64,000 nt of DNA. Origin: Clostridia bacterium (lineage in GTDB: Bacteria > Bacillota > Clostridia > Christensenellales > CAG-1252). Of the stretch, positions 5,374 to 61,569 are shown piece after piece. Each line of letters starts with the position of its first letter. The first letter of the stretch is position 1. The notes beneath the pieces were generated by a model. That model ran no database searches. It worked only from the letters and a program-made list of their open reading frames with translations, and was not told where the DNA came from. Location of the stretch: positions 69,578 through 133,577 of the forward strand of contig JAFPXC010000020.1 in NCBI GenBank assembly GCA_017394805.1. Direction: 5' to 3'. Both the position numbers and the translations under genes were made by a program.

Positions 5374-7077
5374 TCAGTTGAGTTTGGCTGAGAAGTCCGC
5401 GATGCCCGCGTTGACGGCCTGCATCACCTTGGCCACCGTGCCCTCGCGGAAGGGGTTGTCGAGGTGCGCCAAATCGAGAAGGGCAAAGTAGCCGCGACTG
5501 CCGCCCGCGCGGCACAGGGCGAGATAGTCCGTCCACGCCGTTTGGTGGTCGGCGCGGTCTTTGGCGAAGAATTGGAACGCGCACACTTGCGCCAAGGCGT
5601 AGTCCACGTAGTAGAATGGGTAGAGGAAGATATGCTGTTTTTGCATCCAGAAGCCGCCCTCTGCGAGGAACTCGTTGCCGTCGTAGTCACGCCAAGGCAG
5701 GTATTTTTGCTCTATCTCGTGCCATACGGCGCGGCGCTCTTTGGCGGTCATTGCGGGCTTCTCGAATACGCGGTGCTGGAACTCGTCCACCGACACCAGG
5801 TAGGGAATGCAGGTGAGGGCGCCGACGAGGTGCGCGTAGCGGTATTTGTCCGCCGCTTCTTTTCCGAAGAACTTGTCCGCATAGGGGTAGGCGAAGTGCT
5901 CCATCGACATGGAGTGTATCTCGTCCACTTCGCTGGTTGACCACACCATTTCGCTGAGGGGTTGCGTTTTGGCGGCCGTATAGGCCTCGAACGCGTGCCC
6001 CGCTTCGTGCGTCAAAACGTCCACGTCGGCCGAGGTGCCGTTGAAGTTGGAGAAGATGAAGGGCGCGCCCAACGAGCCGAGGAAGGTGCAGTAGCCGCCC
6101 ATATGTTTGTTGGGGCGAGTCTCCAGATCGAACAATTCGTAGTCGCACATAAACTTGAAAAACTCCGCCGTTTCGGGGGAGAGCGCTTGATAGAACTCGA
6201 GCGCTTTGCCTACCAAAACGTCCTTGCCGCCGATGGGATTTGCGTTGCCGTCGGGGAAGAGGAGTTCTTCGTCGTAGTAGCGCAATTTGTCTACGCCCAG
6301 CCGTTTGGCTTGTTCGGCGTGCAGACGGGCGCACACGGGCACGATCTCGTCGCGCACTTGGTCGCGGAAGGCGGCCACGTCTTTGGCGGTGTAGTCGTAG
6401 CGCTCGCGTTGCAGATAGATATAGTCGATATAACTGTCAAAGCCCAACGCTTGCGCTTTTTTGACGCGCAGCGCCACCAACTTGTCGTAGATGGCGTCCA
6501 ACTTGTCCGAAATGCTCTCGTACAAGGCCGCCCATTTCTCAAAGGCCTCTTTGCGCTCGGCGCGGTCGGTCGAATTCATGTGTTTGAGTAGACCGTAGAA
6601 GTTGCACGTTTCGCCGCGGAAATCGCACGACGCCATGGCCGCCGTCTTGGAATACTCTCGCCCGAGTTTTTCCTCGCGGATCATCATGGGGACGATTTTG
6701 GCGTTCATCAGTTTGAGTGAGGTCTCGAGGTTTTTGACCACCAAGTCGCTGTAACGCTCGGCAAGCGCGCCGACGTAGGGGGAGGCCACGACGGCTTTGT
6801 TGAACTTCTTCATTTTGAGTTGCAGTTTGGCGGCGAAGCCGTCCAAAAACTCCATCTCGCCCTCGTAGAACTTGTCGCTCATATCCATCGTGTTGCGGAT
6901 AGAGGCCACGGTGAACATGGTTTCGATTTCTTTACCTTGGCGATCCACGTCGGCGTAGATGCGGCACAATTCGTTGCCCGATTTGACTTTTTTGACTTGC
7001 TTGATGGCTTCGTCGAGTTGGGCGTAGAGAGCCGCTTCGTCGGGGCGCACGTATTTGATTTCGCTGAATTTTTGCAT
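5374..7077 (-). CDS. pepF: Oligoendopeptidase F (M3B metallopeptidase)
   Basis: 567 aa from the ATG at 7077 (TAAGGAGATAACT upstream). HEAGHAF zinc motif. The ORF-track entry 5374..7527 carries a spurious 150-aa N-terminal extension across the upstream terminator. Confidence 0.85.
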   Translation of the reverse strand: MQKFSEIKYVRPDEAALYAQLDEAIKQVKKVKSGNELCRIYADVDRQGKEIETMFTVASIRNTMDMSDKFYEGEMEFLDGFAAKLQLKMKKFNKAVVASPYVGALAERYSDLVVKNLETSLKLMNAKIVPMMIREEKLGREYSKTAAMASCDFRGETCNFYGLLKHMNSTDRAERKEAFEKWAALYESISDKLDAIYDKLVALRVKKAQALGFDSYIDYIYLQRERYDYTAKDVAAFRDQVRDEIVPVCARLHAEQAKRLGVDKLRYYDEELLFPDGNANPIGGKDVLVGKALEFYQALSPETAEFFKFMCDYELFDLETRPNKHMGGYCTFLGSLGAPFIFSNFNGTSADVDVLTHEAGHAFEAYTAAKTQPLSEMVWSTSEVDEIHSMSMEHFAYPYADKFFGKEAADKYRYAHLVGALTCIPYLVSVDEFQHRVFEKPAMTAKERRAVWHEIEQKYLPWRDYDGNEFLAEGGFWMQKQHIFLYPFYYVDYALAQVCAFQFFAKDRADHQTAWTDYLALCRAGGSRGYFALLDLAHLDNPFREGTVAKVMQAVNAGIADFSAKLN

Positions 7078-8130: not shown

Positions 8131-8206
8131 GGGGGCATGGCTCAGTTGGTAGAGCGATACGTTCGCAACGTATAGGCCAGGGGTTCGAATCCCCTTGTCT
8201 CCACCA
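8131..8206 (+). tRNA. tRNA-Ala (anticodon CGC), CCA encoded
   Basis: Hand-folded cloverleaf. Acceptor GGGGGCA/TGTCTCC with the Ala identity pair G3:U70. D arm GCTC-AGTTGGTA-GAGC. Anticodon stem ATACG/CGTAT with loop TTCGCAA. T arm AGGGG-TTCGAAT-CCCCT. 3' CCA. Confidence 0.93.
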
Positions 8207-19000: not shown

Positions 19001-19087
19001 GCCGCCTTCGTCCAAGGGGGCGGTCAACGCGTTGCGCTCGAGCGTGTTGACGCTGAATATATCTTTGTTTTGCCAATATTTTTCCAT
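16067..19087 (-). CDS. lacZ: Beta-galactosidase, glycoside hydrolase family 2
   Basis: About 1006 aa with GH2 motifs NRHDFHPEYGHA, WSLGNESG and CEYAHCMGNS. I prefer the ATG at 19087 (AAGTGAG 7 nt upstream). The ORF track starts at the GTG at 19099, which lacks an SD. Confidence 0.9.
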   Translation of the reverse strand: MEKYWQNKDIFSVNTLERNALTAPLDEGGHPAVLDLNGEWYFRFYDSVNDFDEKLFAADVDCDGLDVISVPSEWQIKGYGTPIYTNVRYPYPISMRAGKLPYIDDAINPCGFYTRTFEVKADREKVILRFDGINSCGVVYVNGRFVGYSEDTFDYAAYDVTDFVTTGENRLSVLVVQFCTGSYLEDQDMWRLAGIFRDVTLQYVSDSHFTDAYFHTEFTDGLSQATIIADVSVDHPEGTVCHLEIPALKVKMKLEAKATMQFQTKQLRDFLLWSHETPHLYNLELRLEKNGVVTDKRLFRYGFRKVDVREDDPSGQPYIALNGRLVKICGVNRHDFHPEYGHAVPRELTYRDLCLLRANNVTSIRTCHYPNPAFFYEMCDELGILVMCENNLETHGLAHLIPRGNPLWLRHTEYRMRNMVRAFRNHPCILFWSLGNESGKGKVFPALKRVALELDGTRLIHYEPYHQVSDMVSSMYAKQTSMQKIADNKPYIHSRALWNLGMGNLLTPAQYKHKPFIQCEYAHCMGNSLGNFGDYWDVFEKNPRLTGGYIWDFADQSIKRIVDGVTQWTMGGDWGDKPNDGVFAFNGILRADRSPNPAFYEVFKVYERIQCTLDKHTLCVHNKQSFSTLDGYTMDLTLRRDGVDALRKSYDCAQLFPDCKPNSTAYFDLPRELRAKDDAEYSLLVEFRQKADLPYAAAGHVVAYDDFLLNRVVRNTAHSKGKVNYQRDGDAFTVFAGATTYRVNLATGALESIRRGGLEYLQTPVKPQFWRAITNNDKYESNSVVDLNKLLGLSKFRNVAKRAKCVASSMTESEDGILLHFDMHARYIVGFDIDYTFYPDGTVRLAMNLTPMANMVRYGFEFGLSEGIDGVTYYGNGEHEAYSDRARNCVLGVYRKSGEEMTHDYLSPQENGNRMDVRWAEIGDKRKVKLSAVSHNFQLGVHPYTVDMLDEAKHLHELGRLPYLTVNVDGAQRGVGGDLPAMACTKKPYKLPKFHTYVVAVDLTVE

Positions 19088-19187: not shown

Positions 19188-19222
19188 TTTACTTTTTGCG
19201 GTTGGTGTCGTATAATAAAAGC
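19188..19222 (+). promoter_or_regulatory. Putative promoter giving leaderless dnaX mRNA
   Basis: TTTACT - 17 nt - TATAAT (19211-19216) - 6 nt - ATG (19223). No SD. Confidence 0.5.
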
Positions 19223-20884
19223 ATGGCATACACGTCTTTATATCGCAAATACAGACCGTCCACCTTTGACGAGGTGATCGGACAGGATACGGTCGTGCGC
19301 ATTTTGCGCAATATGGTGAGCGCGGGCTCTATCGCGCACGCCTATTTGTTTACGGGTACACGCGGTACGGGCAAGACTTCCGTCGCGCGTATTTTCGCCA
19401 AGGCCGTGAATTGCCTTAGCCCCGTCGACGGCTCGCCGTGCGGACAATGTGCCGCGTGCAAGAGCATCGAGTCGGGCACGATGGATTTCATTGAGTTGGA
19501 CGCCGCCAGCAACAACGGCGTGGACGATATCCGCGCCCTTAGGGAGAGCGTCAAATATCCGCCGTCGGACGAGCGTTTGCGCTACAAGGTCTATATCATC
19601 GACGAAGTGCATCAGTTGTCGCCACAGGCGTTCAACGCCTTTCTCAAGACCTTGGAAGAGCCGCCCGCCTATTGCATTTTCATCTTGGCTACGACCGAAG
19701 TGCAAAAGTTGCCGCAGACCATTTTGTCCCGCTGTTTGCGCTTCGATTTTCGCACCGTTTCGCAAGAGGACTTGGCCGCGCATATCGAACGCATATTCGA
19801 CAAAGAGGGCGTAAAGTACGAAAAAGAGGCGGTTTGGTGCATTGCGCAAGCGGGGGCGGGCAGCGTACGCGATACCATGTCGGTGGCCGATACCTGTATG
19901 TCCGCTTCGGACGGCTTCGTCACCTACCAAAAGGTGTTGGGCGTGCTGGGCGCCAGCGATCCCACGTTGATCGCCGACGTGGCGGAGTGCATTCTCAAAG
20001 GGGATTTGGCACGGTCGCTTTCGCTGGTGGAACGCAACGTTTCGATGGGCAAAAACGTCAACGTGCTTACCAAGGATATCACCAAATACATTCGCGATTT
20101 GCTCATCGTCAAAGCGGACCCCAAGGCCAACGATTATCTCAAAATGCCCGAGGACAGCTATCGCCGAGCGAAAGGGATAGCCGACGACCTGGACGCCGTG
20201 ACTTTGGTGCGTGCCTTGGATATTTTTTCGGGACTGGACGGCAATATGCGTATCGCGGCGTCGCCGCGCACGGTGTTGGAGAACGCCATCGCGCGTACCG
20301 CGACTATCAGCGGCGTCAACCTGACCGATTTGTCCGCCCGCGTGAGCGGCGTGGAACGCAAAATCGACGAGGTCGACAAGAAGATCGAGGAGGGCGTCAA
20401 AGTGGTCGCCGTGGCCGCCTCTGCGCCCGTGACGGAGAGTAAAACCGTCGAAACCAACGAGAACACCGCCGCTGTCGCGACGGACAATCTGACGGCGGTC
20501 GACAATCCCTTCGACGAAGATGCAGGTGCGGCCGCGCCCATTAGCACGACGCCGGACGACTATATGTCCGTCAAAGCTGTGTCGCTCAAATATCGCGGCA
20601 ATCTTATCACCTTGCTACGCGAGAAAAAGATGCTTATGATGGGCACGATTATCGACAACGCCTTCATCACAGTGAAGGATAACGTCGTGACTTTTAGCGT
20701 CGGGGACGAAAACGACGTGGACTATCTCGAAAAGAAACGCGAACTGTTGGAAAAGTTGACCGCGGAAATAATGAAAGGAAACTACAAATTAGCTTTCAAG
20801 TTCTCGCCGCCCAAGAAAAAGGACGAAGACTTCGTTTCGGCTTTGGCACAGATCGTCGGCGAGGACAAAATAACCAAAAAATAG
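19223..20884 (+). CDS. dnaX: DNA polymerase III subunits gamma/tau
   Basis: MAYTSLYRKYRPSTFDEVIGQD, Walker A GTRGTGKTS, and a CxxC zinc module. Conserved dnaX-ybaB-recR order. Confidence 0.92.
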   Translation: MAYTSLYRKYRPSTFDEVIGQDTVVRILRNMVSAGSIAHAYLFTGTRGTGKTSVARIFAKAVNCLSPVDGSPCGQCAACKSIESGTMDFIELDAASNNGVDDIRALRESVKYPPSDERLRYKVYIIDEVHQLSPQAFNAFLKTLEEPPAYCIFILATTEVQKLPQTILSRCLRFDFRTVSQEDLAAHIERIFDKEGVKYEKEAVWCIAQAGAGSVRDTMSVADTCMSASDGFVTYQKVLGVLGASDPTLIADVAECILKGDLARSLSLVERNVSMGKNVNVLTKDITKYIRDLLIVKADPKANDYLKMPEDSYRRAKGIADDLDAVTLVRALDIFSGLDGNMRIAASPRTVLENAIARTATISGVNLTDLSARVSGVERKIDEVDKKIEEGVKVVAVAASAPVTESKTVETNENTAAVATDNLTAVDNPFDEDAGAAAPISTTPDDYMSVKAVSLKYRGNLITLLREKKMLMMGTIIDNAFITVKDNVVTFSVGDENDVDYLEKKRELLEKLTAEIMKGNYKLAFKFSPPKKKDEDFVSALAQIVGEDKITKK

Positions 20885-21868: not shown

Positions 21869-24853
21869 TTAGATGACATAGAACTTTCTCGTTCGATAGA
21901 GTAGGGCGTACACGATTACCCATACTGGCAGCAACAGTAGCATGGCCGCGGGGTAGAACACGGGGGCGATAAGGGTGTTGATCTCGCTGATATTGGCGCC
22001 CGATTTCGGATTGAAGAAGGCGATCAGTAAGAAGATCATCATCAATATCAACGCCACCATGAACGAGGTTGCGAACGATAGTTTGAAGGAGAAGGTCGCC
22101 GGCGCGTGTCGGTCTTTGTACGCCAGATAGCGTACGCCGCAGTAGCAGGGGATAAGGAACAGCACGATGCCCGTGCATAGGTAGGGCATAAAGCCGAGCC
22201 CCGCGTATTTGTCACACACGAAGTAGCCGATGAGAATGAGCGCGACCGCCACCAGATAGACTAAGCACGAGGTGGCAAAGCGAATGCTGTTGACGTTGAT
22301 ATATTTCTGCGAATAGTACTGCACGGTATGCTGGACGACGTATTGGCGCACATCGTAGCCTTTTTTGCGCATCTCTTCGCGGAATTCGGACAGACTGCCG
22401 CATTCCTTCATCGTGATTTTGCTGTCCACGTCTTCTTGCTGTTTGGGCGCGTTGGACGAATTGAACAAGTTGTGCAAAATCGTCTTGTACGACAGGTGTT
22501 TTTCCGTTTCTTCCTGTTGCAGGTAGATTTCCAATTCGGTTTGGGGCGTGAAGATGGCGGAGTAGGACTCTCTCTTTGGCGAGATTTCTTCCTCTTTGAC
22601 CTCGGGCACTTCCTCTTCTGGCTCTTGCGGCTCCTCGGTTTTATCGTCCTCGATCAAGCCCAAAAGGCGCATAGAAGCAAGCCTTTTCTCGTGCATTTCG
22701 GGGTTTTCTTCCAATTCTTGCCGAATGTCGGCACGACTGAACGCCGTCCTGCGTTTGATTGGTTCAGGCTCGGCTTGGGCGGCCTCTTGCGATTGCTCGT
22801 ACAAGGCAAAGGTGTCGGCTTCTTCCTCTTCGGCAATGACGCGTTCCTCGTTTTTGCGGCCTTTACGCCCTTTCTGCCGCGCCTTTTTGTCTTCTTTGAC
22901 GGGCGCAACGGGCTCGTTCGATTCTTCCTCGGGCAAGGAACTATTCGCCTCTACGACGGCTTCGTCATAGGTGGATTCGGGCTGTGCTTCCGCTTGTTCC
23001 GAGGGGAGAGTAGCCTCGACGTCGGACGGAGTTTCGTCGGTTTGCGCTTCTTCTTGCGTTTCGCTATCGGCGTCGTCGGCACGAGATTCTTGTTCGGCGG
23101 GTTCTTCCGTTCGTTCGCTTGCGACCACAGGCTCTTTATAGGTTCGTTCTGCTTCGGGCACTACGGGATATTCCTCGTCGGTCGTCTCTTGTGCGGGTTC
23201 TTCCGTTGTGTCTTGGGATGGCTCGCCGAAGAGGACGTATTCGTCCATCACGGTCGAAGTCGGTTCGTAGGCGGATTCGGTCTCGACCGCGGTGGGCGTT
23301 TCGTCGTCCTCGACAACTGCTTCGAGCTCGTCGGTTTCGTTATATTCTTCGGTTATGTCTTCTTCTGCCGCTTCGTCTCGTTCGTCGACGGGTTGCTCGG
23401 CGCTTTCGGTTTCGATCGATTCGTCTTCAACGTCGGCGTTTTCGTCAACTATTTCCGCGCATATCTCGTCTTCGTCCGTATCGTCGGTATTTTCGACGAC
23501 AAAGGGCGGTTCATCGCCGTCTTCTTCGTGTTCTTCGCTATTCTCTGCGGCGATAACTTGTTCGTCTTCCGATTCTTCTTCGACTGCTTCCGTTTGGTCG
23601 CTTTCGACAGCATACGCGGCCTCGTCCGCCGTATCGTCGAATTGCTCGTCGAGCACTTCCTCGGCAACTTCGGCAGGTTCTTCCTCGTCGTTATCGTCCG
23701 ATTCTCGTTCGTCTTCGCAGACGGTTTCAGCTTGTTTGAACGGCTCGTAAGAGTAGGGCGGCTCGTATTCGCTTGCCGCTTCATCGTCTGCGCTTTCGTC
23801 TTCGTCCGTCACCTGCGCCTCTTCCGCCGTATCGTCTTCGGCGGCGTAAAGCGCTTCGTGCGCAGGCTCGTATTCTTCGTCCGATATTGCTTCCTCGTCC
23901 GTTTCTTCTTGCACGACCTCTTCTTGCTCGTCGTCGGAGGGTAGGGCGGGTTGTTCTTCGTCTTGGGCGGCTTCTTTTATTTCAGTCTCGTCTTCGTTTA
24001 TATCGTCGGCAGCTTCTTCGAAGGGCTCTTCCTTGATTTCTTCCTCGTCCGACTCGGCGAAAACTTCCTCGACTTGTTCGGCTTCTGCGGGGAGTTCGTC
24101 GGAAATTTCTTCGCATTCGACGTTGGAATCTTCCTCAGACTCGGACGAATCGTCTTCGTCAACGTCCTCGGCAGCGTCTTTCGCCGCTATTGAATCTTCT
24201 TCCGTTTCGGCGGGCTCTTCGACTTCTACGGGGCATTCTTCTTCGATTTGCGCGGAATCATCCTCGTTTTCTTGGTCATCAGCTGCGTTTTCGGTCGAAT
24301 ATTGCGCATCGGTATCCGTTTCCTGTTCGGTTAGAGATTCGTCAATGGCGATATCCGTTTCACTTTCGACTTCACTTTCGTCGGTATCGGCGGCGTCCGC
24401 TTCCGCTGCAAGTTCGGTGAACTCCTCGGCATCTTCGATTTCGAAAATCTCGAGGTTGTCTTCAAAAATGTGCAGGGTAGGCTTGCCGTCACCGAAATCA
24501 TCGGTGAGATATATCTTCTCGTTCGAAGCGCTCACCGGAGAGAGCGCCAGCGCGTCGCACAATTTGTCGATCATTTGGTCGTCCAGATTGAACATAGGCA
24601 GGTCATCGACCGAAATGCGCAGGGCAAAAAACGAGCGGTTGGGATCGGATTCTTGACAAATGCAGGCAATCAGGCAATCCAACTGCAATTCGTTGACTCT
24701 ATTGGCGACGCTCAAAGGGGAAATATGATAACGGTCCAAAAAACCGTCCAAAGACGACGTAATCTCGTAAACTGTCAACGAGGAATGCGCCAATGCGTTG
24801 AGTATGTAGGAATCCATTTGTTCCAGCAATTCATCGTATATATTATTTCCCAT
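21869..24853 (-). CDS. Hyper-acidic membrane-anchored protein: winged-helix-like N-terminal domain, ~540-aa D/E-rich disordered tract, 4-TM C-terminus
   Basis: 994-aa ORF. The N-terminal ~130 aa are globular (ILNALAHSSLTVYEITSSL... resembles a wHTH). Residues ~140-680 are roughly 40-50 percent D+E by eye, with almost no K/R. A short basic patch follows (KKARQKGRKGRKNEER). The C-terminal ~150 aa contain four long hydrophobic helices. No family recognised. Confidence 0.75.
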   Translation of the reverse strand: MGNNIYDELLEQMDSYILNALAHSSLTVYEITSSLDGFLDRYHISPLSVANRVNELQLDCLIACICQESDPNRSFFALRISVDDLPMFNLDDQMIDKLCDALALSPVSASNEKIYLTDDFGDGKPTLHIFEDNLEIFEIEDAEEFTELAAEADAADTDESEVESETDIAIDESLTEQETDTDAQYSTENAADDQENEDDSAQIEEECPVEVEEPAETEEDSIAAKDAAEDVDEDDSSESEEDSNVECEEISDELPAEAEQVEEVFAESDEEEIKEEPFEEAADDINEDETEIKEAAQDEEQPALPSDDEQEEVVQEETDEEAISDEEYEPAHEALYAAEDDTAEEAQVTDEDESADDEAASEYEPPYSYEPFKQAETVCEDERESDDNDEEEPAEVAEEVLDEQFDDTADEAAYAVESDQTEAVEEESEDEQVIAAENSEEHEEDGDEPPFVVENTDDTDEDEICAEIVDENADVEDESIETESAEQPVDERDEAAEEDITEEYNETDELEAVVEDDETPTAVETESAYEPTSTVMDEYVLFGEPSQDTTEEPAQETTDEEYPVVPEAERTYKEPVVASERTEEPAEQESRADDADSETQEEAQTDETPSDVEATLPSEQAEAQPESTYDEAVVEANSSLPEEESNEPVAPVKEDKKARQKGRKGRKNEERVIAEEEEADTFALYEQSQEAAQAEPEPIKRRTAFSRADIRQELEENPEMHEKRLASMRLLGLIEDDKTEEPQEPEEEVPEVKEEEISPKRESYSAIFTPQTELEIYLQQEETEKHLSYKTILHNLFNSSNAPKQQEDVDSKITMKECGSLSEFREEMRKKGYDVRQYVVQHTVQYYSQKYINVNSIRFATSCLVYLVAVALILIGYFVCDKYAGLGFMPYLCTGIVLFLIPCYCGVRYLAYKDRHAPATFSFKLSFATSFMVALILMMIFLLIAFFNPKSGANISEINTLIAPVFYPAAMLLLLPVWVIVYALLYRTRKFYVI

Positions 24854-24890
24854 ATAATAGTATTTTAGTACAAACGACCATAAAAGTCAA
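24854..24890 (-). promoter_or_regulatory. Putative promoter of the acidic-protein gene (leaderless or near-leaderless)
   Basis: Minus strand TTGACT - 17 nt - TAAAAT - 8 nt - ATG (24853). No SD. Confidence 0.45.
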
Positions 24891-24946
24891 TAAGAACGCA
24901 AATATTATAGGTGAGCGACCGCTAAAATGAAACGGCGGCGAAGCAC

Positions 24947-25354
24947 AATACATTATGTACGGTATGAAACGTATAGTATAATCGGCATACAAAACGTATA
25001 GTTTTATAACCATACAAAATGTATAGCAATACATACAAAATGTACAATAGCGGCAGTAATGGCGTATATGTACATTTTGTATAGTATACTGTACATTATG
25101 TATAGTTGCAAATAAAACATCAGCCATGGAAGACGGGGAGTTGGTGCGCGTGTACGTTTTGTATAGTGCGCTATACGTTATGTATAGATACACAAGTTGC
25201 TCGGTAATGACTATATGTTTTGTATATCTACGACAAATATTCATGTACAAGGATACTGTCGATCGGCTTGCCGTGTTCGCTCCGGATTGTCTGTATGTCT
25301 TCGATGAATGCCTTGTTTTTGTTTGGCGGCTATTTATTCTGTACAAAACGTACG
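24947..25354. repeat. Palindrome array, block A: at least 11 copies of CTRTAC-N5-GTAYAG
   Basis: Left half-site starts at 24947, 24986, 25011, 25032, 25069, 25090, 25151, 25172, 25212 and 25340, plus a right-half-only site at 24971. Examples: CATACAAAACGTATAG (24986-25001) and CTATACGTTATGTATAG (25171-25187). The spacer is always A/T-rich. Confidence 0.9.
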
Positions 25355-25370
25355 ATTTTGGCCAAATTTT

Positions 25371-25416
25371 GCCTATATCTTTTCGCAAAAGGCGTCTTTT
25401 GCGAAAAGATATAGGC
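25371..25416. repeat. Perfect 21-bp inverted repeat (hairpin/cruciform) in the array core
   Basis: GCCTATATCTTTTCGCAAAAG (25371-25391), loop GCGT, then CTTTTGCGAAAAGATATAGGC (25396-25416). There is no flanking U-tract on either strand. Confidence 0.9.
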
Positions 25417-25618
25417 AAAGCGCAAATTTCCCTCGTCAGAGCCCGTATATACAAAAGATAATTGCCGCCCGACACCACCGAACGGAATGGGTTGGCGTGC
25501 GTGCGCTTTCGTTCGGCCAAACTGACGGATCGCCCCTGCCCTATCGACGCAAATTTGCAAAAATCGTCAAAATTCTCCTCGGGGGAAAATACTTGCATTC
25601 GCCAAAAAACGCGCGATA

Positions 25619-26229
25619 TGTACATAATGTATAGTCAAATAAACGCCTGGTGATGGCCTATATATAATGTATACAAAATGTACAGTCAACTGTATAAAAC
25701 GTATAGATAAGAATTATTGGGACCAACATTGCATTCTGTAGATTTTATACAGCAAACTATACTAAACGTATAGATGGCAATTAAGAATGAATAGCGCGAC
25801 CTCACTCCCCCGCCCTGACCGTCCTTCAATAATCGAACTATACAAAATATATATATAACTATACATATTGTATACTATACATTTCATACAGCGTACTATA
25901 CATTATGTATATGTATATTTCGTATAGTAAATATGTCCTTACGGCTGCTTCCCGTTTTGAGCCGTCAATATTGTCCATTGTGTATGTACAAATTGTATAG
26001 ATACAAAACGTATAGGCCTATACAAAGCGTACAGTCATTCGTTTCATCGGCACGCTGTACAAAACGTATATGGTGTGTTTGAGACTATGCTATACGTTAT
26101 GTATATATACAAATTGTATAGTTTGAAACGTCGCTATACATATCGTATACATACATTTTGTATACTTGGCGTTCGTCTTGCTGAGATACGATTCTTCCGC
26201 CCGCATATTGTTACTGTATAAAACGTATA
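25619..26229. repeat. Palindrome array, block B: at least 20 copies of CTRTAC-N5-GTAYAG
   Basis: Left half-site starts at 25619, 25659, 25670, 25691, 25737, 25758, 25839, 25860, 25876, 25897, 25912, 25985, 26000, 26019, 26056, 26091, 26106, 26135, 26150 and 26215. Example: CTATACTAAACGTATAG (25757-25773). Confidence 0.9.
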
Positions 26230-26291
26230 TTATCGGTATTTTTTGTATATTCAATCATTTTAGAAAAATATGTTTTTTTATCGAAAAAGTC

Positions 26292-26320
26292 TTGCAAAAA
26301 TAACCTGTTTATGGTAGAAT
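26292..26320 (+). promoter_or_regulatory. Putative sigma-A promoter of the XRE gene
   Basis: TTGCAA - 17 nt - TAGAAT. A leader with SD GAGGTG precedes the ATG at 26347. Confidence 0.55.
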
Positions 26321-26346
26321 GAAACTACCATTTATGAGGTGCAGTA

Positions 26347-26559
26347 ATGAACAATTTTAAGTACAATCTCATAATCACCCGCAAGCGTTGCAAGTATACC
26401 CAAAAGGAGATGGCGGATATGCTTGGCGTGACCGAGGGTTGCTACGCGCACTGGGAACAAGGGCGGAATGAGCCGAGCATCGCTTATATCATTCAGCTTT
26501 GCAAACTGTTACACGTTACGTCGGACGAGCTGCTGGGTGTCAACAATGACGAGAACTAA
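26347..26559 (+). CDS. XRE-family helix-turn-helix transcriptional regulator
   Basis: 70 aa. YTQKEMADMLGVTEGCYAHWEQGRNEPS is a classic Cro/C1-type HTH. Confidence 0.82.
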   Translation: MNNFKYNLIITRKRCKYTQKEMADMLGVTEGCYAHWEQGRNEPSIAYIIQLCKLLHVTSDELLGVNNDEN

Positions 26560-26581
26560 GTCGCAAACAGCGACTTTTTTC
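26558..26581 (+). terminator. Probable intrinsic terminator after the XRE gene
   Basis: AAGTCGC / GCGACTT stem with a 5-nt loop, then T6. It overlaps the stop codon. Confidence 0.55.
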
Positions 26582-26609
26582 TTTGCTTAAAATCTTTTCG
26601 CAAAAATTA

Positions 26610-26644
26610 TTGCATTTCCGCTCAATCCGTCTTATCATAATAGT
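26610..26644 (+). promoter_or_regulatory. Putative promoter giving leaderless recombinase mRNA
   Basis: TTGCAT - 17 nt - TATCAT (26633-26638) - 6 nt - ATG (26645). No SD. Confidence 0.5.
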
Positions 26645-27700
26645 ATGGACAATTACTTTCAAAACCGCGATATCGAAAACACGAAGAAGCTGAGCGCGCT
26701 ACGCAAGCAACTGCCGCCCTACTGCGGCAAGTATTTCGTCGCCATTTCTTCGGTCACGACGGCTTTGACGAGATTGGGCTACGCACGCGATTTGCTCATA
26801 TTCTTCAACTACCTCTGCTCTACCGGTCAATTCGGCATGTGCACACCCCCCGAGTTCGATATCGACCGTCTCAACGCCGTAACGCAATCGGACATCGAGG
26901 CCTATCTCGATTATCTGTCCAATTACGAGGTGGACGGCAAAATATACGTCAATAAATTGAGCGCCATGTCGCGCAAACTGTCCGCCGTGCGCTCTCTCTT
27001 CAAATATCTGTATAACAAGGACTTGTTGCACGAAAACGTTTCCGCCAAGGTGCTGACGCCCAAACTGCACGAAAAGGAAATCATTAGGCTGGAGTCGGAC
27101 GAAATGCAGCGCTTTATGGACGTGGTGGAACGCGGCGACAATCTGGGCGAGGGGCATCAATCGGCCTACCACAAAAACGTCGCCCTGCGCGATATGGCCA
27201 TCACTACCCTACTGCTCGGCACGGGCATTCGTATCAGCGAATGCGTCGGCCTCAACGTGGACGACCTGGACTTCGACAACCGCAAATTCGTCGTGACGAG
27301 GAAAGGCGGCAGTCGCTCCATATTGTATATGCCCCAAGAGGTGATCGACGCGTTGCAGGCCTACCTCAGCGTACGTTTGGCCATTCCCACAGATACCGAC
27401 GCCTTGTTTTTGTCCCTGCAAAACAGGCGTATCAACGTGCGTACCGTGCAGATTATGGTGCGAAAATACGCCGCGGCCGCCGTGCCGACGAAGCATATCA
27501 CGCCGCACAAATTGCGCTCTACGTTCGGTACCAATCTATATAGAGAAACCAAAGATATTTATGTCGTGGCCACCGTACTCGGCCATAGCGACGTGAATAC
27601 GACCAAAAAACACTACGCCGCCATCAGCGAAGATATCAAAAAGCAGGCGGCAGAGGTCGTGCGCTTGCGCCCCTCGGACGGCGACGATACGCACGAATAA
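26645..27700 (+). CDS. Tyrosine site-specific recombinase, XerC/XerD-like
   Basis: 351 aa. N-terminal SAM-like core-binding domain. The catalytic residues sit in their usual context (GTGIRISE; HKLRSTFGT; LGHSDVNTTKKHYA). Confidence 0.9.
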   Translation: MDNYFQNRDIENTKKLSALRKQLPPYCGKYFVAISSVTTALTRLGYARDLLIFFNYLCSTGQFGMCTPPEFDIDRLNAVTQSDIEAYLDYLSNYEVDGKIYVNKLSAMSRKLSAVRSLFKYLYNKDLLHENVSAKVLTPKLHEKEIIRLESDEMQRFMDVVERGDNLGEGHQSAYHKNVALRDMAITTLLLGTGIRISECVGLNVDDLDFDNRKFVVTRKGGSRSILYMPQEVIDALQAYLSVRLAIPTDTDALFLSLQNRRINVRTVQIMVRKYAAAAVPTKHITPHKLRSTFGTNLYRETKDIYVVATVLGHSDVNTTKKHYAAISEDIKKQAAEVVRLRPSDGDDTHE

Positions 27701-34548: not shown

Positions 34549-35852
34549 AGTATCTCTCCAAACAATGAAGCGGACTGTGACCGCGTGATTTTGACCGTAA
34601 CGAATTGCCCGATAAGGTCGGCGCCGCCCTCGAAAGTGACCAATCGACCGCTCTCCGTCCTGCCGCACACGCACCCTGCCCGCTTGGGCGCGACGTCCTC
34701 GACCAGCACTTCATACGAATGCCCCGTGTAGGTGTCGCTGATCTCTTTGGTGATGCGGTTTTGTTCGGCAACCAAAGCGGTGATACGCGCTTTTTTGACG
34801 CCGGGCGGTATCTGCTCCATCGTGGCGGCGGGCGTGCCTTTGCGCGGCGAATAGACGAAGGTGAACGCGTTGGAGAAGCGCACCTTGCGTACCAGATCCA
34901 AGGTGTCCTCGAAGTCCTCATCCGTCTCGCCGGGGAAGCCGATCATTATGTCCGACGTAATGCCGACGTCGGGCAATTTGGCCTTGAGTTCCTCGATGAT
35001 GGCGAGGTAGCGGGCGCGATCGTAGTGGCGATTCATCGCTTTGAGAATCCTGTCCGAACCCGATTGCACGGGCAAGTGCACGTTGTTGCATATATTGGGA
35101 TAGCGCGCTATGACGTCGATGACTTTGCTCGAAAAGTCCTTGGGGTGCGAGGTCATAAAGCGTATGCGGTATTTGCCTTCGATTTGGGCGATGCGCTCTA
35201 GGAGGTCTGCGAAGTTTTCGCCGTCCGCAAGGTCGCTGCCGTAACTGTCTACGTTCTGCCCGAGCAAGGTGATCTCCTTGTACCCTTCGGCGATAAGCGC
35301 GCGCACCTCGGCGACCACGTCCTCGATTTTGCGCGAACGCTCACGCCCGCGCACGTAGGGCACGATGCAGTAGGTGCAAAAATTGTTGCAACCGTACATA
35401 ATATTGACCCAAGCGTTGGGATAGGAGGTACGGGTAACGGGCAATTTGGCGTCCGCGTCGACGGTGCTGTCGGCGAGCGAAACGCTCTTTTTTCCGCGCC
35501 GTCTGGCTACGACTGCGGCGGGTAATTCGGCCAAATTGGACGTGCCCAAAACGATATCCACGTAGGGGAATTTCTTTTTGAGCAACTCGGCGGCGCCTTT
35601 TTGCTGGGTCATACAGCCCACGACGGCGATAATCATGTCTTTCTTTTGGCGTTTGAGCCCTTTCAAAACCCCGATATTGCCCTGAATCTTCTTCTCGGCG
35701 GTGTCGCGGATACAGCAAGTATTGAAGACCACGATATCCGCGTCTTCTTCGCTATTGCACGCCGAATAGCCGATGGCTTCGAGCATACCGGCGATCTTTT
35801 CGGACTCATGCACGTTCATTTGGCAACCGTACGTCTTGATAAGGTAATTCAT
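34545..35852 (-). CDS. miaB: tRNA-2-methylthio-N6-dimethylallyladenosine synthase
   Basis: 435 aa. UPF0004 N-terminus (TYGCQMNVHESE), radical-SAM motif CNNFCTYCIVP and a TRAM C-terminus. Confidence 0.92.
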   Translation of the reverse strand: MNYLIKTYGCQMNVHESEKIAGMLEAIGYSACNSEEDADIVVFNTCCIRDTAEKKIQGNIGVLKGLKRQKKDMIIAVVGCMTQQKGAAELLKKKFPYVDIVLGTSNLAELPAAVVARRRGKKSVSLADSTVDADAKLPVTRTSYPNAWVNIMYGCNNFCTYCIVPYVRGRERSRKIEDVVAEVRALIAEGYKEITLLGQNVDSYGSDLADGENFADLLERIAQIEGKYRIRFMTSHPKDFSSKVIDVIARYPNICNNVHLPVQSGSDRILKAMNRHYDRARYLAIIEELKAKLPDVGITSDIMIGFPGETDEDFEDTLDLVRKVRFSNAFTFVYSPRKGTPAATMEQIPPGVKKARITALVAEQNRITKEISDTYTGHSYEVLVEDVAPKRAGCVCGRTESGRLVTFEGGADLIGQFVTVKITRSQSASLFGEIL

Positions 35853-37536: not shown

Positions 37537-38340
37537 TTACTTGACGTTTTGTCTTAGTGATTTCAGATATTGCAAACTGTCTTGCAACTCATATACTTCC
37601 TTGAAATTGTTCTGGTAGGCTTCGATGAGCACCGCGCCCTCGAACCCCATATCGGCAAGGCGTTGGAAAAACGCCTTGAAGTCGAAACTGCCCCTGCCCG
37701 GCAAGCACAAAGTCTTGTCGTCGTCGTAGTCAACGACGTGCACGGTGGCCAAGCGGCTGCCCATGGCGTCCAGATAGGCGTAGACGTCCACCTCGGACTG
37801 CATGGCCTGCTTGATATCCAAAGTGGTGCGCAAATCCGCGTCGTAGGGCGACAAAGAGGTGATGAATTCGGGATAGTTGTAGTAGGCCCAATGCACGTTT
37901 TCGTAACACAAAGTGACGCCGTATTCGTGGCATATCTCGTCCACGTGCTTGACCTTGGGGCCGAAAGTGGCGAAGTCGATATGGTAGGGCTTGCGTTTGA
38001 GCCGCGCCGGCCCGTGAAAGGTGTAGAACTTCGCGCCCATCATCCGTCCGTTGCCCAACGCCAACCGAAGCCACTCTTCCGCGTCCTCTACCGTCCTGGG
38101 GCTGATATTGAACAACTCGGGCTCGAAATGCTGGTTGAGCGTGTGAATGCTGTGAATGGGCAAATCGCCCTTGTTGCGCACGTACAGCCTGCCGAACTCG
38201 GGCTTGTACTCGCGGAAGGTGCTCATAAAAACCTCAGCCGTCTCCGCGCCCAAATCGCGCACGACGGGTAAGGCGTCTTCGGTGTGGTACCGCGTAAACA
38301 AGGACGCGGTGGATATTCCCAACTTGAACTGTGCACTCAT
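37537..38340 (-). CDS. Sugar phosphate isomerase/epimerase (xylose-isomerase-like TIM barrel)
   Basis: 267 aa from the ATG at 38340 (MSAQFKLGISTASLF...). The family call rests on the overall pattern of TIM-barrel AP-endonuclease-2-like proteins. The GTG extension in the ORF track lacks an SD. Confidence 0.72.
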   Translation of the reverse strand: MSAQFKLGISTASLFTRYHTEDALPVVRDLGAETAEVFMSTFREYKPEFGRLYVRNKGDLPIHSIHTLNQHFEPELFNISPRTVEDAEEWLRLALGNGRMMGAKFYTFHGPARLKRKPYHIDFATFGPKVKHVDEICHEYGVTLCYENVHWAYYNYPEFITSLSPYDADLRTTLDIKQAMQSEVDVYAYLDAMGSRLATVHVVDYDDDKTLCLPGRGSFDFKAFFQRLADMGFEGAVLIEAYQNNFKEVYELQDSLQYLKSLRQNVK

Positions 38341-38375
38341 AGTCGTATTATACAATACAAAAGCATATTTTGCAA
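38341..38375 (-). promoter_or_regulatory. Putative promoter giving leaderless mRNA for the isomerase/epimerase gene
   Basis: Minus strand TTGCAA - 17 nt (ending in TG) - TATAAT - 6 nt - ATG (38340). Confidence 0.55.
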
Positions 38376-38486
38376 TCCTCACCGCAAAAAACTTTTATTT
38401 ATTTGTTATTTATCGCGGTCTGACGGCTCCCCCCCCAAAAAAAAGAAAAGCGGCTAGCGAAGTAGCCGCCGATTGGTGATCGAGCG

Positions 38487-39562: not shown

Positions 39563-42124
<2,562 letters not shown>

Positions 42125-42996: not shown

Positions 42997-43031
42997 TTGG
43001 CAATTTGCGTTTTTCGGTGTATAATAATGGT
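42997..43031 (+). promoter_or_regulatory. Putative promoter giving leaderless dinB mRNA
   Basis: TTGGCA - 17 nt (ending in TG) - TATAAT (43020-43025) - 6 nt - ATG (43032). Confidence 0.5.
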
Positions 43032-44288
43032 ATGCTTACACCCGATTTTTCTCGTATCATCCTGCATATCGACGCCAACAACTTCTACGCGTCCTGCGAA
43101 TGCGCCCGCAACCCCGAACTCAGGGGACACCCCTTGGTGGTGTGCGGCAATCCGCAAAAACGCAAAGGTATCGTGTTGGCCAAGTCCTACGAAGCCAAAC
43201 GCTACGGCATTCAAACGGGGGATACGGTGTTTACCGCCCAAAAGAAGTGCCCTAACGTTATTTTGATTCAACCGGACTTTTCTATTTATTCCTATTACAG
43301 CAAGCGGCTGTTTGCGCTCTACACGCAGTACACCGACCGCGTGGAAAGTTTCGGTATGGACGAGTGCTGGCTGGACGTCACGGGCTCCAAGCGCCTCTTC
43401 GGCGACGGCAAGCAAATCGCGGACGCCATACGCGAGAAGGTCAAGGAAGACCTACGACTCACCGTATCCGTCGGCGTGTCCTTTACCAAGGTCTTCGCCA
43501 AACTCGGCTCGGACTACAAGAAGCCCGACGCTACCACGGTCATCGACCGCGACAACTACCGCACCCTCGCCTGGGGCCTGCCCGTCGGCGATATGATCAT
43601 GGTCGGGCACCAGACCGAGAAAGCCTTGCGCAACATCGGCATACTCACCATAGGTGAGTTGGCCAACGCGCCCGAGAATATCCTGCGGGACAAGTTCGGC
43701 GTCAACGGCGTCAAACTAATGCACGCGGCGCAGGGTATCGAGGACGGCGAAGTGATGCACTACTACGACCACGTGATACCCGAAAGCATTTCCAACGGCA
43801 CCACCACCTCGGTGGATATCGAACGCGTCGAAGAAGCGCTCGCTCTCGTTACCACATTATCCGATATGGTGACCACGCGCCTGAGGGGGTACGGCCTACG
43901 CGCCATGGGTTGCTTCATCTACTGCAAATCGCACGATTTCGCGGGATTCGGCGGCACCATGCGGCTGGACTACCCCATCGGCTCGGCGAGCGAACTCATT
44001 GACAACTGTATGGAGATGCTGCGCTCTTTGTGGAGCGAACGCTCGTTCGTACCCTTGCGCTCCATCACCTTGGGCGTGTCGCGCCTCATCGGCGGCGACG
44101 TCTATTGGCAGACCTCTATATTTGACACGGTGGACCACCAACGCAACACGCAGGCCGACCAAGCCGTGGACGGCATACGCGCCAAGTTCGGCAAAGGCGT
44201 CATTTCCAGAGCCGCCACCCTCACCTACACCTATACGACGGACGAAATACTCGACGACAGCACCTACAAACCCTTCAAAAAGAACTGA
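43032..44288 (+). CDS. dinB: DNA polymerase IV (Y-family)
   Basis: 418 aa. ILHIDANNFYASCE, SFGMDECWLD and SVGVSFTKVFAKLGSDYKKPD motifs. The ORF-track entry 42111..44288 is this gene fused to an antisense shadow of galU. Confidence 0.9.
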   Translation: MLTPDFSRIILHIDANNFYASCECARNPELRGHPLVVCGNPQKRKGIVLAKSYEAKRYGIQTGDTVFTAQKKCPNVILIQPDFSIYSYYSKRLFALYTQYTDRVESFGMDECWLDVTGSKRLFGDGKQIADAIREKVKEDLRLTVSVGVSFTKVFAKLGSDYKKPDATTVIDRDNYRTLAWGLPVGDMIMVGHQTEKALRNIGILTIGELANAPENILRDKFGVNGVKLMHAAQGIEDGEVMHYYDHVIPESISNGTTTSVDIERVEEALALVTTLSDMVTTRLRGYGLRAMGCFIYCKSHDFAGFGGTMRLDYPIGSASELIDNCMEMLRSLWSERSFVPLRSITLGVSRLIGGDVYWQTSIFDTVDHQRNTQADQAVDGIRAKFGKGVISRAATLTYTYTTDEILDDSTYKPFKKN

Positions 44289-52477: not shown

Positions 52478-52504
52478 TTGGCACTCGTAACCCTTGACTG
52501 CTAA
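52478..52504. promoter_or_regulatory. CIRCE operator 1 (overlaps the predicted TSS)
   Basis: TTGGCACTC-N9-GACTGCTAA against the consensus TTAGCACTC-N9-GAGTGCTAA. Confidence 0.85.
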
Positions 52505-60256: not shown

Positions 60257-60592
60257 CTACGTCAACTCCACCACCACGCCCAACGTGGGATATATTATCT
60301 TGTCCCCTTTGCGGGATAGCGTCGCCACCCTGCCCCGATAGACGGTCTCCAACTTGTCCCCGTTGACGCGCACCTGCACGCCGCTATAGGTAGCCACGGG
60401 GTTGTAGGGTTGCCCGAGCGCAAGGGTGGACACGGCCTTGCCGTCCACGTACACGGTAGCGGTGGCGGCCGATTCGCGCGGCAAGAGAACGGTGAGCAAG
60501 CACGCCGTGACGACGACCACTACGAGGGCGGCCACGAGCAAGTCCCACTTGCCCAAAACGCGTATTTTGTTGTGTTCGGCATAGGCATTCAT
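60257..60592 (-). CDS. NusG-domain-II-containing membrane-anchored protein
   Basis: 111 aa from the ATG at 60592. One TM helix, then a beta-rich segment ATVYVDGKAVSTLALGQ...VQVRVNGDKLETV. Confidence 0.65.
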   Translation of the reverse strand: MNAYAEHNKIRVLGKWDLLVAALVVVVVTACLLTVLLPRESAATATVYVDGKAVSTLALGQPYNPVATYSGVQVRVNGDKLETVYRGRVATLSRKGDKIIYPTLGVVVELT

Positions 60593-60627
60593 ATCGAAAT
60601 TATACCGCATTTCGCGCCGTTTGTCAC
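60593..60627 (-). promoter_or_regulatory. Putative promoter giving leaderless mRNA for the NusG-II / Gx pair
   Basis: Minus strand GTGACA - 17 nt - TATAAT - 6 nt - ATG (60592). Confidence 0.5.
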
Positions 60628-60744
60628 CCAAAAGGCACGATTTACTCTCGCTTTTGCACATAATTTCGCTACTTTTGGGGCAATGTTGCGCCAATCAGTT
60701 GAAATTGTTGCCCATTTACTATATAATTTTGATAGGAGTGAGGT

Positions 60745-61569
60745 ATGAAGTACAGCAAACTTGCTTTTCAATATATGGCCAACAAACACTTTTGGAAACT
60801 GCTTTTGTTGCTAATAGCGCCGGCGGTGGCCATTTCTATGTTTACCGGTTTCGACACCACGGCCAAACTCATCACGCGCTTCCCCGAGCGCACCGAATAC
60901 AGCTTCGCCGAGATGTTCCACCTGACCAGCGAGGTCAATTGGAAAGTGCTCATCGGCTTGGTGGTTATGTTCTTTGCTTACGTGGTGCTGTTCGCCGTGA
61001 TGATCGGCGCGATGCAACGCCATATGCGCACGGGACGCTTCGCCATGACCAACATAGGCAAGCGCATCAACGAGAACTTCCTGCCCGTGTTTCTCACCTT
61101 GTTGATGGTGTTCTTGTTCATCTTCCTGTACGGCTTGTTCCTCAATATCACCATCATCGCTTGGTGGGCCATGACCAAGAACCTCGTGGCGACCTACATA
61201 CTGACCATCTTCTTTATGGTGGCGTTCTTCCTCTTGTTGATGTGGCTGTTCACCATCTTCTTCCTCACCTGCCCCAATATGGTGGTGACCGGGCAAAGTC
61301 TTTCGGACAGCGTGAGTTACAGCATCCGCATTTCGCGCTCCAAGCGCCGCCAACTGTACCTCGCCATCGCCCTGCCTTTGTCCATCATGATGGTACTGCA
61401 ATTCGGCTTGGTGTGGATACCCGAAAAGGTGTATAAGATACTGCACGTCATCACCAACGCGATTATGGTGCTGTTCATCACTTGCTATTATCCCGTGCTG
61501 ATGTTCGTCAGCTACTACGATATCAACGACAAGGACCGCGAGGATCTCTTGCCCGTCAATCGTCTATAG
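60745..61569 (+). CDS. Polytopic membrane protein, unknown function
   Basis: 274 aa. SD GGAGTGAGG. About 6 hydrophobic helices. Confidence 0.65.
   Translation: MKYSKLAFQYMANKHFWKLLLLLIAPAVAISMFTGFDTTAKLITRFPERTEYSFAEMFHLTSEVNWKVLIGLVVMFFAYVVLFAVMIGAMQRHMRTGRFAMTNIGKRINENFLPVFLTLLMVFLFIFLYGLFLNITIIAWWAMTKNLVATYILTIFFMVAFFLLLMWLFTIFFLTCPNMVVTGQSLSDSVSYSIRISRSKRRQLYLAIALPLSIMMVLQFGLVWIPEKVYKILHVITNAIMVLFITCYYPVLMFVSYYDINDKDREDLLPVNRL

Follow-up and report, generated by a model that had tools for sequence, protein, structure and literature searches.

A 64,000-nucleotide stretch of a contig from a Clostridia bacterium (the window, by which we mean the whole stretch analysed) contains six genes whose promoters abut their start codons, with the −10 hexamer ending 6–8 nucleotides (nt) before the ATG and no Shine-Dalgarno (SD) sequence in between. 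The genes are dnaX, a tyrosine recombinase gene, dinB, the gene for a xylose-isomerase-like protein, a 111-amino-acid (aa) open reading frame (ORF) and the gene for an acidic 994-aa protein. We consider it likely, at a probability of about 0.8, that all six are expressed as leaderless mRNAs, where the transcription start sites (TSSs) and the mode of ribosome recruitment are those we infer from the layout of the sequence. The −35/−10/ATG arrangements put forward in a first-pass annotation of this DNA are all present in the window, exact to the letter (numbers between the elements are lengths in nt; matches are those of a consensus promoter scan):

19188..19225, + strand: dnaX promoter and start codon, TTTACT-17-TATAAT-6-ATG; 10/12 matches; ATG at 19223
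26610..26647, + strand: recombinase promoter and start codon, TTGCAT-17-TATCAT-6-ATG; unlisted by the scan; ATG at 26645
42997..43034, + strand: dinB promoter and start codon, TTGGCA-17-TATAAT-6-ATG; 11/12 matches; ATG at 43032
38338..38375, − strand: isomerase promoter and start codon, TTGCAA-17-TATAAT-6-ATG; 10/12 matches; ATG at 38340
60590..60627, − strand: 111-aa ORF promoter and start codon, GTGACA-17-TATAAT-6-ATG; 11/12 matches; ATG at 60592
24851..24890, − strand: 994-aa gene promoter and start codon, TTGACT-17-TAAAAT-8-ATG; 10/12 matches; ATG at 24853

A −10 Pribnow box of the form TANNNT ends 6–8 nt before the start codon at all six sites. The annotation had further described each site as a good sigma-A-type promoter, which holds for five of them: these have the sigma-70/sigma-A pattern (TTGACA-like −35, spacer of 16–18 base pairs (bp), TATAAT-like −10), agree with the consensus at 10–11 of 12 positions and rank among the best sigma-70-type matches of their regions. 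The recombinase site is missed by the scan, its −35 (TTGCAT) agreeing with the consensus at just three of six positions.

Shine-Dalgarno sites and enrichment over chance

Start codons were curated for 49 genes in the window, using gene calls on contigs of the same species and the N-termini of orthologues. Of these genes, 31 are preceded by an SD that spans 5 nt or more (typically AAGGAG, 5–8 nt upstream), and seven others by one of 4 nt (38/49). Five genes are without any signal; all of them lie inside operons, overlap or adjoin the stop codon of the gene before them, and are translationally coupled. The remaining six are the genes listed above, each of which heads its own transcription unit, the region upstream being divergent or bounded by a terminator (promoter scans and gene table). 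Across the 49-gene table, every unit-first gene without a convincing SD has a −10 hexamer 6–8 nt before its ATG.

As the annotation had stated, none of the six genes has an SD of at least 5 nt within 3–12 nt of the ATG, and no SD match of at least 4 nt lies between the −10 hexamer and the ATG. The sole 4-nt match, GGTG at dinB, is located 5′ of the −10 hexamer and so would not be present in the transcript. The leaderless candidates and their orthologues all start with ATG; SD-led genes also start with GTG or TTG. By our own grouping of genes into units, and for this one 64-kilobase (kb) window, about 6 of 24 units (∼25%) are of the leaderless type, corresponding to 12% of the genes; the description of the arrangement as widespread rests on the window and its syntenic relatives.

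Very short leaders are also predicted for many SD-led units. In the units at 35852, 58604, 1825 and 60745 the −10 hexamer is just 17–20 nt before the ATG, which would bring the SD to the 5′ end of the mRNA or close to it. The leaderless genes seem to be the extreme case of an overall trend towards short 5′ untranslated regions.

There are four copies of TATAAT-N6-ATG in the window, where 0.33 would be expected (∼12-fold), the expectation being taken from 100 dinucleotide-preserving shuffles, none of which reached four. All four matches open long coding ORFs of real genes. There are 39 TATAAT hexamers on the two strands of the window, and 6 nt is the sole enriched spacing to an ATG. The spacing profile in the clade likewise peaks sharply at 6, and that of 1.26 megabases of distant Clostridia loci has no peak there; under a strict filter, the density of sites in the window is ∼6 times that of the distant set.

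A/T-rich intergenic DNA often contains promoter-like hexamers, and coincidence might account for six cases near an ATG in 64 kb. Relaxed hexamers of the TANNNT type are indeed abundant (292 in the window), and several hexamers 5–8 nt ahead of an ATG fall inside coding regions. However, the excess of the exact motif over the shuffles is confined to a single spacing, all six sites coincide with unit-first genes that lack an SD, and the geometry is kept in relatives in which the flanking bases have diverged, while the distant control set is flat. Enrichment and conservation already contradict a chance origin, which we regard as hardly credible.

Other candidates in the window were rejected. A seventh site, TATAAT-5-TTG (TTGTCGTATAATCGTAATTG, 42095–42113, + strand, with the TTG at 42111), lies antisense within the start of the clpB coding region and is probably a chance match or an antisense promoter. 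Hexamers 5–8 nt before an ATG at 23355, 36706, 40947 and 45059 are within or antisense to coding regions. The true start of lacZ is the ATG at 19087, preceded by a ∼30-nt leader and a weak SD.

Start codons and gene calls

The leaderless assignment depends on the start codons of the following genes:

19223..20884, + strand: dnaX, 553 aa, first gene of a dnaX-ybaB-recR unit; Pfam DnaX domains, with DNA_pol3_delta2 from residue 21
26645..27700, + strand: tyrosine recombinase, 351 aa, XerS-like; Pfam Phage_integrase
43032..44288, + strand: dinB, 418 aa; Pfam IMS from residue 13, which is profile position 1; gene callers use the same ATG
37537..38340, − strand: xylose-isomerase-like TIM-barrel protein, 267 aa, first in a unit with pgi; Pfam AP_endonuc_2 from residue 27
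60257..60592, − strand: small protein of 111 aa with a hydrophobic stretch at its N-terminus, first of a two-gene unit; homologues conserved from the proposed methionine
21869..24853, − strand: acidic 994-aa protein without a Pfam family, with a hydrophobic C-terminus; isoelectric point 4.05, 29% aspartate plus glutamate

Pfam matches bear out the earlier labels for DnaX, the tyrosine recombinase, DinB and the TIM-barrel isomerase, as does the isoelectric point for the acidic protein. The label NusG-II for the 111-aa ORF falls below threshold: its match to NusG_II (PF07009) scores 17 bits, under the cut-off of 29.6 (E = 0.0067), and covers residues 23–61 only.

The first-pass annotation had allowed that the true start codons might be in-frame codons further downstream preceded by an SD. 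We found none that fits, and the proposed methionines are supported by the Pfam positions and by the N-termini of orthologues. The N-terminus MAYTSLYRKYRP of DnaX is universal among homologues, and that of the isomerase aligns with its orthologue in the relative L090.

More generally, the starts could be misplaced in either direction, the true ones being upstream TTG, GTG or ATG codons or downstream SD-preceded codons, with the hexamers then lying inside coding sequence. Some public gene calls are in fact longer than ours. An exact look-up of the 553-aa DnaX gave no match, as the public calls carry a 562-aa version (P0001) that begins at an upstream TTG; the 111-aa ORF is called as 134 aa in P0241, and L001 and L002 have calls of 124 or 134 aa. 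For the isomerase, an in-frame ATG at 38226 is preceded by GAGGT. Against this, the extensions of dnaX are not conserved protein: MRSVSYNKS, MRRLSYNFI, MIYNIC and KLYNDS have nothing in common except the two codons that spell TATAAT, and the same is true of the extensions MYNVV, MRYNED, RYNVT and RYNSG of the 111-aa homologues. Other orthologues are called precisely from the proposed methionine. The ATG at 38226 was rejected, since starting there would delete the beginning of the AP_endonuc_2 domain together with the conserved N-terminus of the isomerase. Misplacement of the starts is therefore very improbable, and we retain the proposed ATG codons.

The discrepant calls have a recurrent form. 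Four dnaX homologues are called with extensions that run into the proposed methionine as ...SYNFI/M, MIYNIC/M, ...LYNDS/M and ...LYTIP/M (P0005, P0007 and P0012 with 'YN', P0015 with 'YT'), and share only the hexamer-spelling two codons; the 111-aa homologues P0243–P0245 carry the same 'YN' signature. Gene callers find no SD and consequently extend or shift the N-terminus, so that 'YN' (TATAAT) recurs two codons ahead of the true methionine. The public N-termini miscalled in this systematic way, some by extension through the promoter and others by a shift to a start further downstream, are those of P0001, P0005, P0007, P0012, P0015, P0241–P0245, L091 2327, L087 12687, L086 17118 and 15401, and L094 6178. 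Callers tuned to SD sequences add spurious 'YN'-marked residues to proteins in metagenome-assembled genomes, or truncate them, and such errors spread into protein catalogues.

Conservation in relatives

The closer relatives used here are homologues from protein catalogues together with their contigs, in which gene order is the same as in the window; their DnaX is 51–74% identical. Identical proteins are found in metagenome assemblies (ENA and Logan) and in an NCBI 'Clostridia bacterium' assembly. The nearest species representatives (one genome per species; named Clostridia, Christensenellaceae, Candidatus Coproplasma and similar) have DnaX proteins that are 40–52% identical.

The dnaX layout is kept in six of six lineages (the window and L085–L089, with DnaX 51–100% identical). 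Each has a −35 of TTTACA or TAGACA (TTTACT in the window), 17 bp, TATAAT, a gap of 6 nt (8 in L089) and the ATG, and the spacer and gap sequences are unrelated among lineages. The layout of the 994-aa gene is also kept in six of six, a comparison made after two mis-called starts had been corrected by N-terminal homology. All five relatives combine a TTGACA-like −35 with a −10 of TATGAT (L085, L088 and L089) or TATTAT (L087 and L086) that ends 6 nt before the ATG, with a spacer of 17 bp in four and 18 bp in L086. For dinB the layout is kept in four of four lineages (the window, L090, L091 and L092) as TATAAT or TATACT, 6 nt and ATG; in two of the four, an extended TGn −10 replaces a good −35. 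For the 111-aa ORF it is kept at the DNA level in three of three (the window, L093 and L094).

Pairwise identity between orthologues was 0.93 for the −10 and 0.68 for the −35, as compared with 0.37 in the spacer and 0.41 in the gap of 6 nt. The lengths of spacer and gap are therefore kept while their sequences are saturated, which is the classical footprint left by a functional promoter held at a set spacing to the ATG. Judged by this comparison, selection acts on the geometry of the promoter. Where the gap is 6 nt (21 aligned sites), the base at −1 is a pyrimidine without exception (T in 17, C in 4) and that at +1 is A; a pyrimidine followed by a purine is the usual preference at a TSS.

A further feature of the same 21 sites is a G four bases 5′ of the −10 hexamer, present in 16 of them and flanked by T (T-G-T-n-K-TATAAT). 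This resembles a TG element displaced relative to the usual extended −10 (TGn).

As negative controls, and not as evidence on conservation, we collected 80 genome loci and 79 metagenome loci of distant Clostridia through their DnaX proteins (36–54% identical). The great majority of the 80 genome loci have an SD-like sequence before the DnaX N-terminus, and only L018 appears leaderless. An SD of at least 4 nt precedes dnaX in 74 of the 79 metagenome loci, where only L097 appears leaderless (TTGCCA-17-TATAAT-7-ATG). With an SD-like motif before dnaX in all but a few of these ∼160 distant loci, leaderless dnaX is not a general trait of Clostridia. In L018 (8565) and L097 (∼4538) the SD-less dnaX has its −10 hexamer 7–8 nt before the ATG, and L097 shares the DnaX N-terminus given above; on the basis of these sequences the two may lie at the outer boundary of the leaderless clade or have arisen independently.

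That two initiation modes coexist, as the annotation had proposed, is borne out by the SD-led neighbours, which retain their SD in the same relatives (S21, HIT, hrcA, HPF, pgi, the NTP-transferase gene and the helix-turn-helix gene). Two positions in the relatives, L091 1296 and L089 8733/8736, were considered as leaderless starts and rejected because SD-led starts lie a few codons away. In the window, a CIRCE-type inverted repeat (TTAGCAGTC-N9-GAGTGCCAA, 52478–52504, − strand) lies between the hrcA promoter and its SD; matching repeats are visible in L090, L091, L092 and L094, and the element is an ordinary heat-shock operator.

Proposed initiation mode and known leaderless systems

RNA polymerase normally starts ∼7 nt downstream of the −10 hexamer, at a purine that follows a pyrimidine. 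With the −10 ending 6 nt before the ATG (8 in one gene), transcription is expected to start on the A of the ATG or within 1–2 nt of it; where the gap is 6 nt, this A comes seventh after the hexamer, which is where transcription canonically starts. We propose that ordinary housekeeping-sigma (sigma-A/sigma-70-type) promoters would transcribe the six genes, that each transcript would begin with AUG and have neither a 5′ untranslated region nor an SD, and that the 70S ribosome, or the 30S subunit with initiator tRNA, would bind the 5′-terminal AUG directly. Leaderless mRNAs are reportedly translated by recognition of a 5′-terminal AUG without an SD (described by Moll et al. in 2004, as cited in PMC6431027). 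The rest of the genome would use canonical AAGGAGG SD sites alongside this mode. The leaderless state would be a heritable, selected property of particular genes in the lineage, and a gene may sometimes be toggled between the leaderless state and a short-leader SD state by short indels in the −10-to-ATG interval. In the predicted folds, the first 50 nt of the transcripts are weakly structured and the AUG is unpaired in five of six.

Several observations weigh against this interpretation. The folding energy of the first 50 nt does not differ from that of shuffled sequences. The 8-nt gap of the 994-aa gene in the window would allow a leader of 1–2 nt. The recombinase layout is kept in only three of five lineages (the window, L086 and L089), the genes in L085 and L088 having a leader, and the poor recombinase −35 lies inside a block that is conserved in relatives lacking the geometry. 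A conserved element overlaps this supposed −35 (see below), and the sequence may thus be a dif-like or recombination site or an operator instead. For the isomerase the layout is seen in one of two: L090, the sole available relative, keeps TTGCAA-17-TATAAT but has a 39-nt leader with a hairpin, so the leaderless state is not obligatory there. In addition, the relatives were fetched through the six genes themselves and hence show conservation rather than an independent genome-wide frequency, and the lineage is known from metagenome assemblies alone, the leaderless status being read from sequence.

The leader hairpin of the L090 isomerase gene (∼5617–5690, − strand) is perfect, AAATAGGTcaaatAACCTATTT. 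The opposite switch was seen for a 274-aa gene, which is SD-led in the window (TATAAT-tttgatAGGAGtgaggt-ATG, 60722–60747, 17 nt with AGGAG). The gene in L093 also has TATAAT, 17 nt that include AGGAG, and ATG, and that in L094 (∼6235, − strand) has TTGATA-17-TATAAT-6-ATG.

A different account would place the promoters further upstream and give the mRNAs ordinary leaders, the TATAAT near the ATG being an unstructured, SD-independent landing site for the ribosome (e.g. through protein S1) that looks like a promoter by coincidence. SD-independent initiation on A/U-rich leaders is established, and the recombinase and 994-aa genes do have weak promoter-like matches further upstream, for example at 25112–25083. 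However, an A/U-rich enhancer needs no exact 6-nt distance, no invariant T-A...T and no pyrimidine at −1, and it would leave unexplained the −35-like hexamer that lies exactly 17 bp upstream in five of the six and is more conserved than the spacer. The dinB promoter lies inside a 60-bp divergent intergenic region and that of dnaX in one of 135 bp, and the promoter scan shows no second same-strand promoter-like site in either. Finally, terminator-like hairpins lie just 5′ of two of the promoters:

26558..26576, + strand: terminator-like hairpin after the helix-turn-helix gene, directly 5′ of the recombinase promoter
38449..38470, − strand: terminator-like hairpin 5′ of the isomerase promoter

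The first of these speaks against a leader supplied to the recombinase gene by read-through transcription. Rfam and tRNA scans of the window gave a single match, tRNA-Ala at 8131–8206, and nothing bearing on the six sites. We therefore consider upstream promoters with ordinary leaders unlikely, and leaderless transcription from the abutting promoters remains our preferred explanation.

The element that overlaps the recombinase −35 consists of ATCTTTTCGCAAAA(A/T) followed by ATTGYAC (26592–26615) and lies just 5′ of the XerS-like gene, whose product scores 196 bits against the NCBIfam XerS model NF003462, below the cut-off of 267. It is present in all five lineages (the window, L085, L086, L088 and L089; slight variants in L085) and persists where the −10/ATG geometry has been lost. 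In known systems, xerS adjoins difSL, a 31-bp site with two inverted arms (PMC5357621). The element resembles the difSL arms TTTCCGAAAA and TTTTCTTGAAA, and the window region contains ATCTTTTCGCAAAAA; no second arm was identified there. The GC skew of the window is steadily positive (+0.07 to +0.12) over the first ∼22 kb and close to zero thereafter, a change that coincides with a gene-poor stretch of low GC content (43%) at 24.9–26.3 kb beside the XerS-like gene. From these features, the region at ∼22000–27000 may be a replication terminus region.

Extended to the lineage as a whole, the proposal becomes more tentative. It is possible, at a little below even odds in our estimate, that this uncultured gut/rumen Clostridia lineage (DnaX ∼50–100% identical) is leaderless-rich in the manner of Actinobacteria, with about a quarter of its units of this type; that dnaX and dinB have kept the state through deep divergence while other genes flip by insertions or deletions of ∼10–40 nt; and that gene callers systematically mis-annotate the N-termini. 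If so, leaderless initiation is frequent beyond Actinobacteria, Deinococcus and archaea, and is established in a Clostridia lineage with strong SD sequences elsewhere in the genome. Orthologue pairs that differ only by a short leader would then be natural material for studying the switching of initiation modes.

The mechanism proposed is thus a known one in a new lineage, at an apparent frequency that is unusually high for the bacterial group. We found no literature report of leaderless genes for the present Clostridia lineage. The view in the first-pass annotation that leaderless initiation is atypical for Firmicutes is broadly right, although the mode is documented in the phylum, at ∼9% in streptococci and in the 3.4% of genomes classed as leaderless-rich. 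Leaderless genes were identified in 56 of 209 Firmicutes genomes, with an average share of 4.2% of genes and 16.6% at most, and are concentrated in Lactobacillales and Mycoplasma (PMC3160421, PMC6028130). GeneMarkS-2 classes 36 of 1064 Firmicutes genomes (3.4%) as leaderless-rich (group C), a group in which leaderless transcripts account for 25–50% of operons and the −10 box is ∼10 nt from the start (PMC6028130). In C. difficile, the mapped example among Clostridia, there are just 15 candidate leaderless genes (PMC7438776).

Among streptococci, 8.6–9% of mRNAs have been mapped as leaderless, and 81% are shared between S. pyogenes and S. agalactiae (PMC6431027). The streptococcal case (S. pyogenes and S. 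agalactiae, as well as S. pneumoniae) resembles the present one in that SD-led genes are the norm and leaderless genes are a minority conserved between species, again within Firmicutes. The streptococcal TSSs were mapped, whereas those in the window are predicted, and the frequency here is apparently higher, the window having ∼25% of its units and 12% of its genes of this type.

A close likeness is to Actinobacteria and Deinococcus-Thermus, where unit-first genes likewise lack an SD and have TANNNT 6–8 nt ahead of the start codon, and genes inside operons are SD-led. On the basis of the TA-like signal, Zheng et al. (2011) gave 19–39% of genes as leaderless in their Actinobacteria/Deinococcus-Thermus comparison (PMC3160421); the corresponding ∼25% of units reported here refers to the 64-kb window only. 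The host here, unlike Actinobacteria, is an uncultured Clostridia lineage of medium GC content (54%), and in place of the degenerate TANNNT of high-GC genomes there is a full TATAAT with a clear −35. The translation step proposed, recognition of a 5′-terminal AUG by 70S ribosomes without an SD, is the same as for cI of phage lambda and tetR of Tn1721. Those are isolated cases in genomes dominated by SD-led genes, whereas the genes described here include chromosomal housekeeping genes (dnaX and dinB) with clade-wide conservation of the layout.

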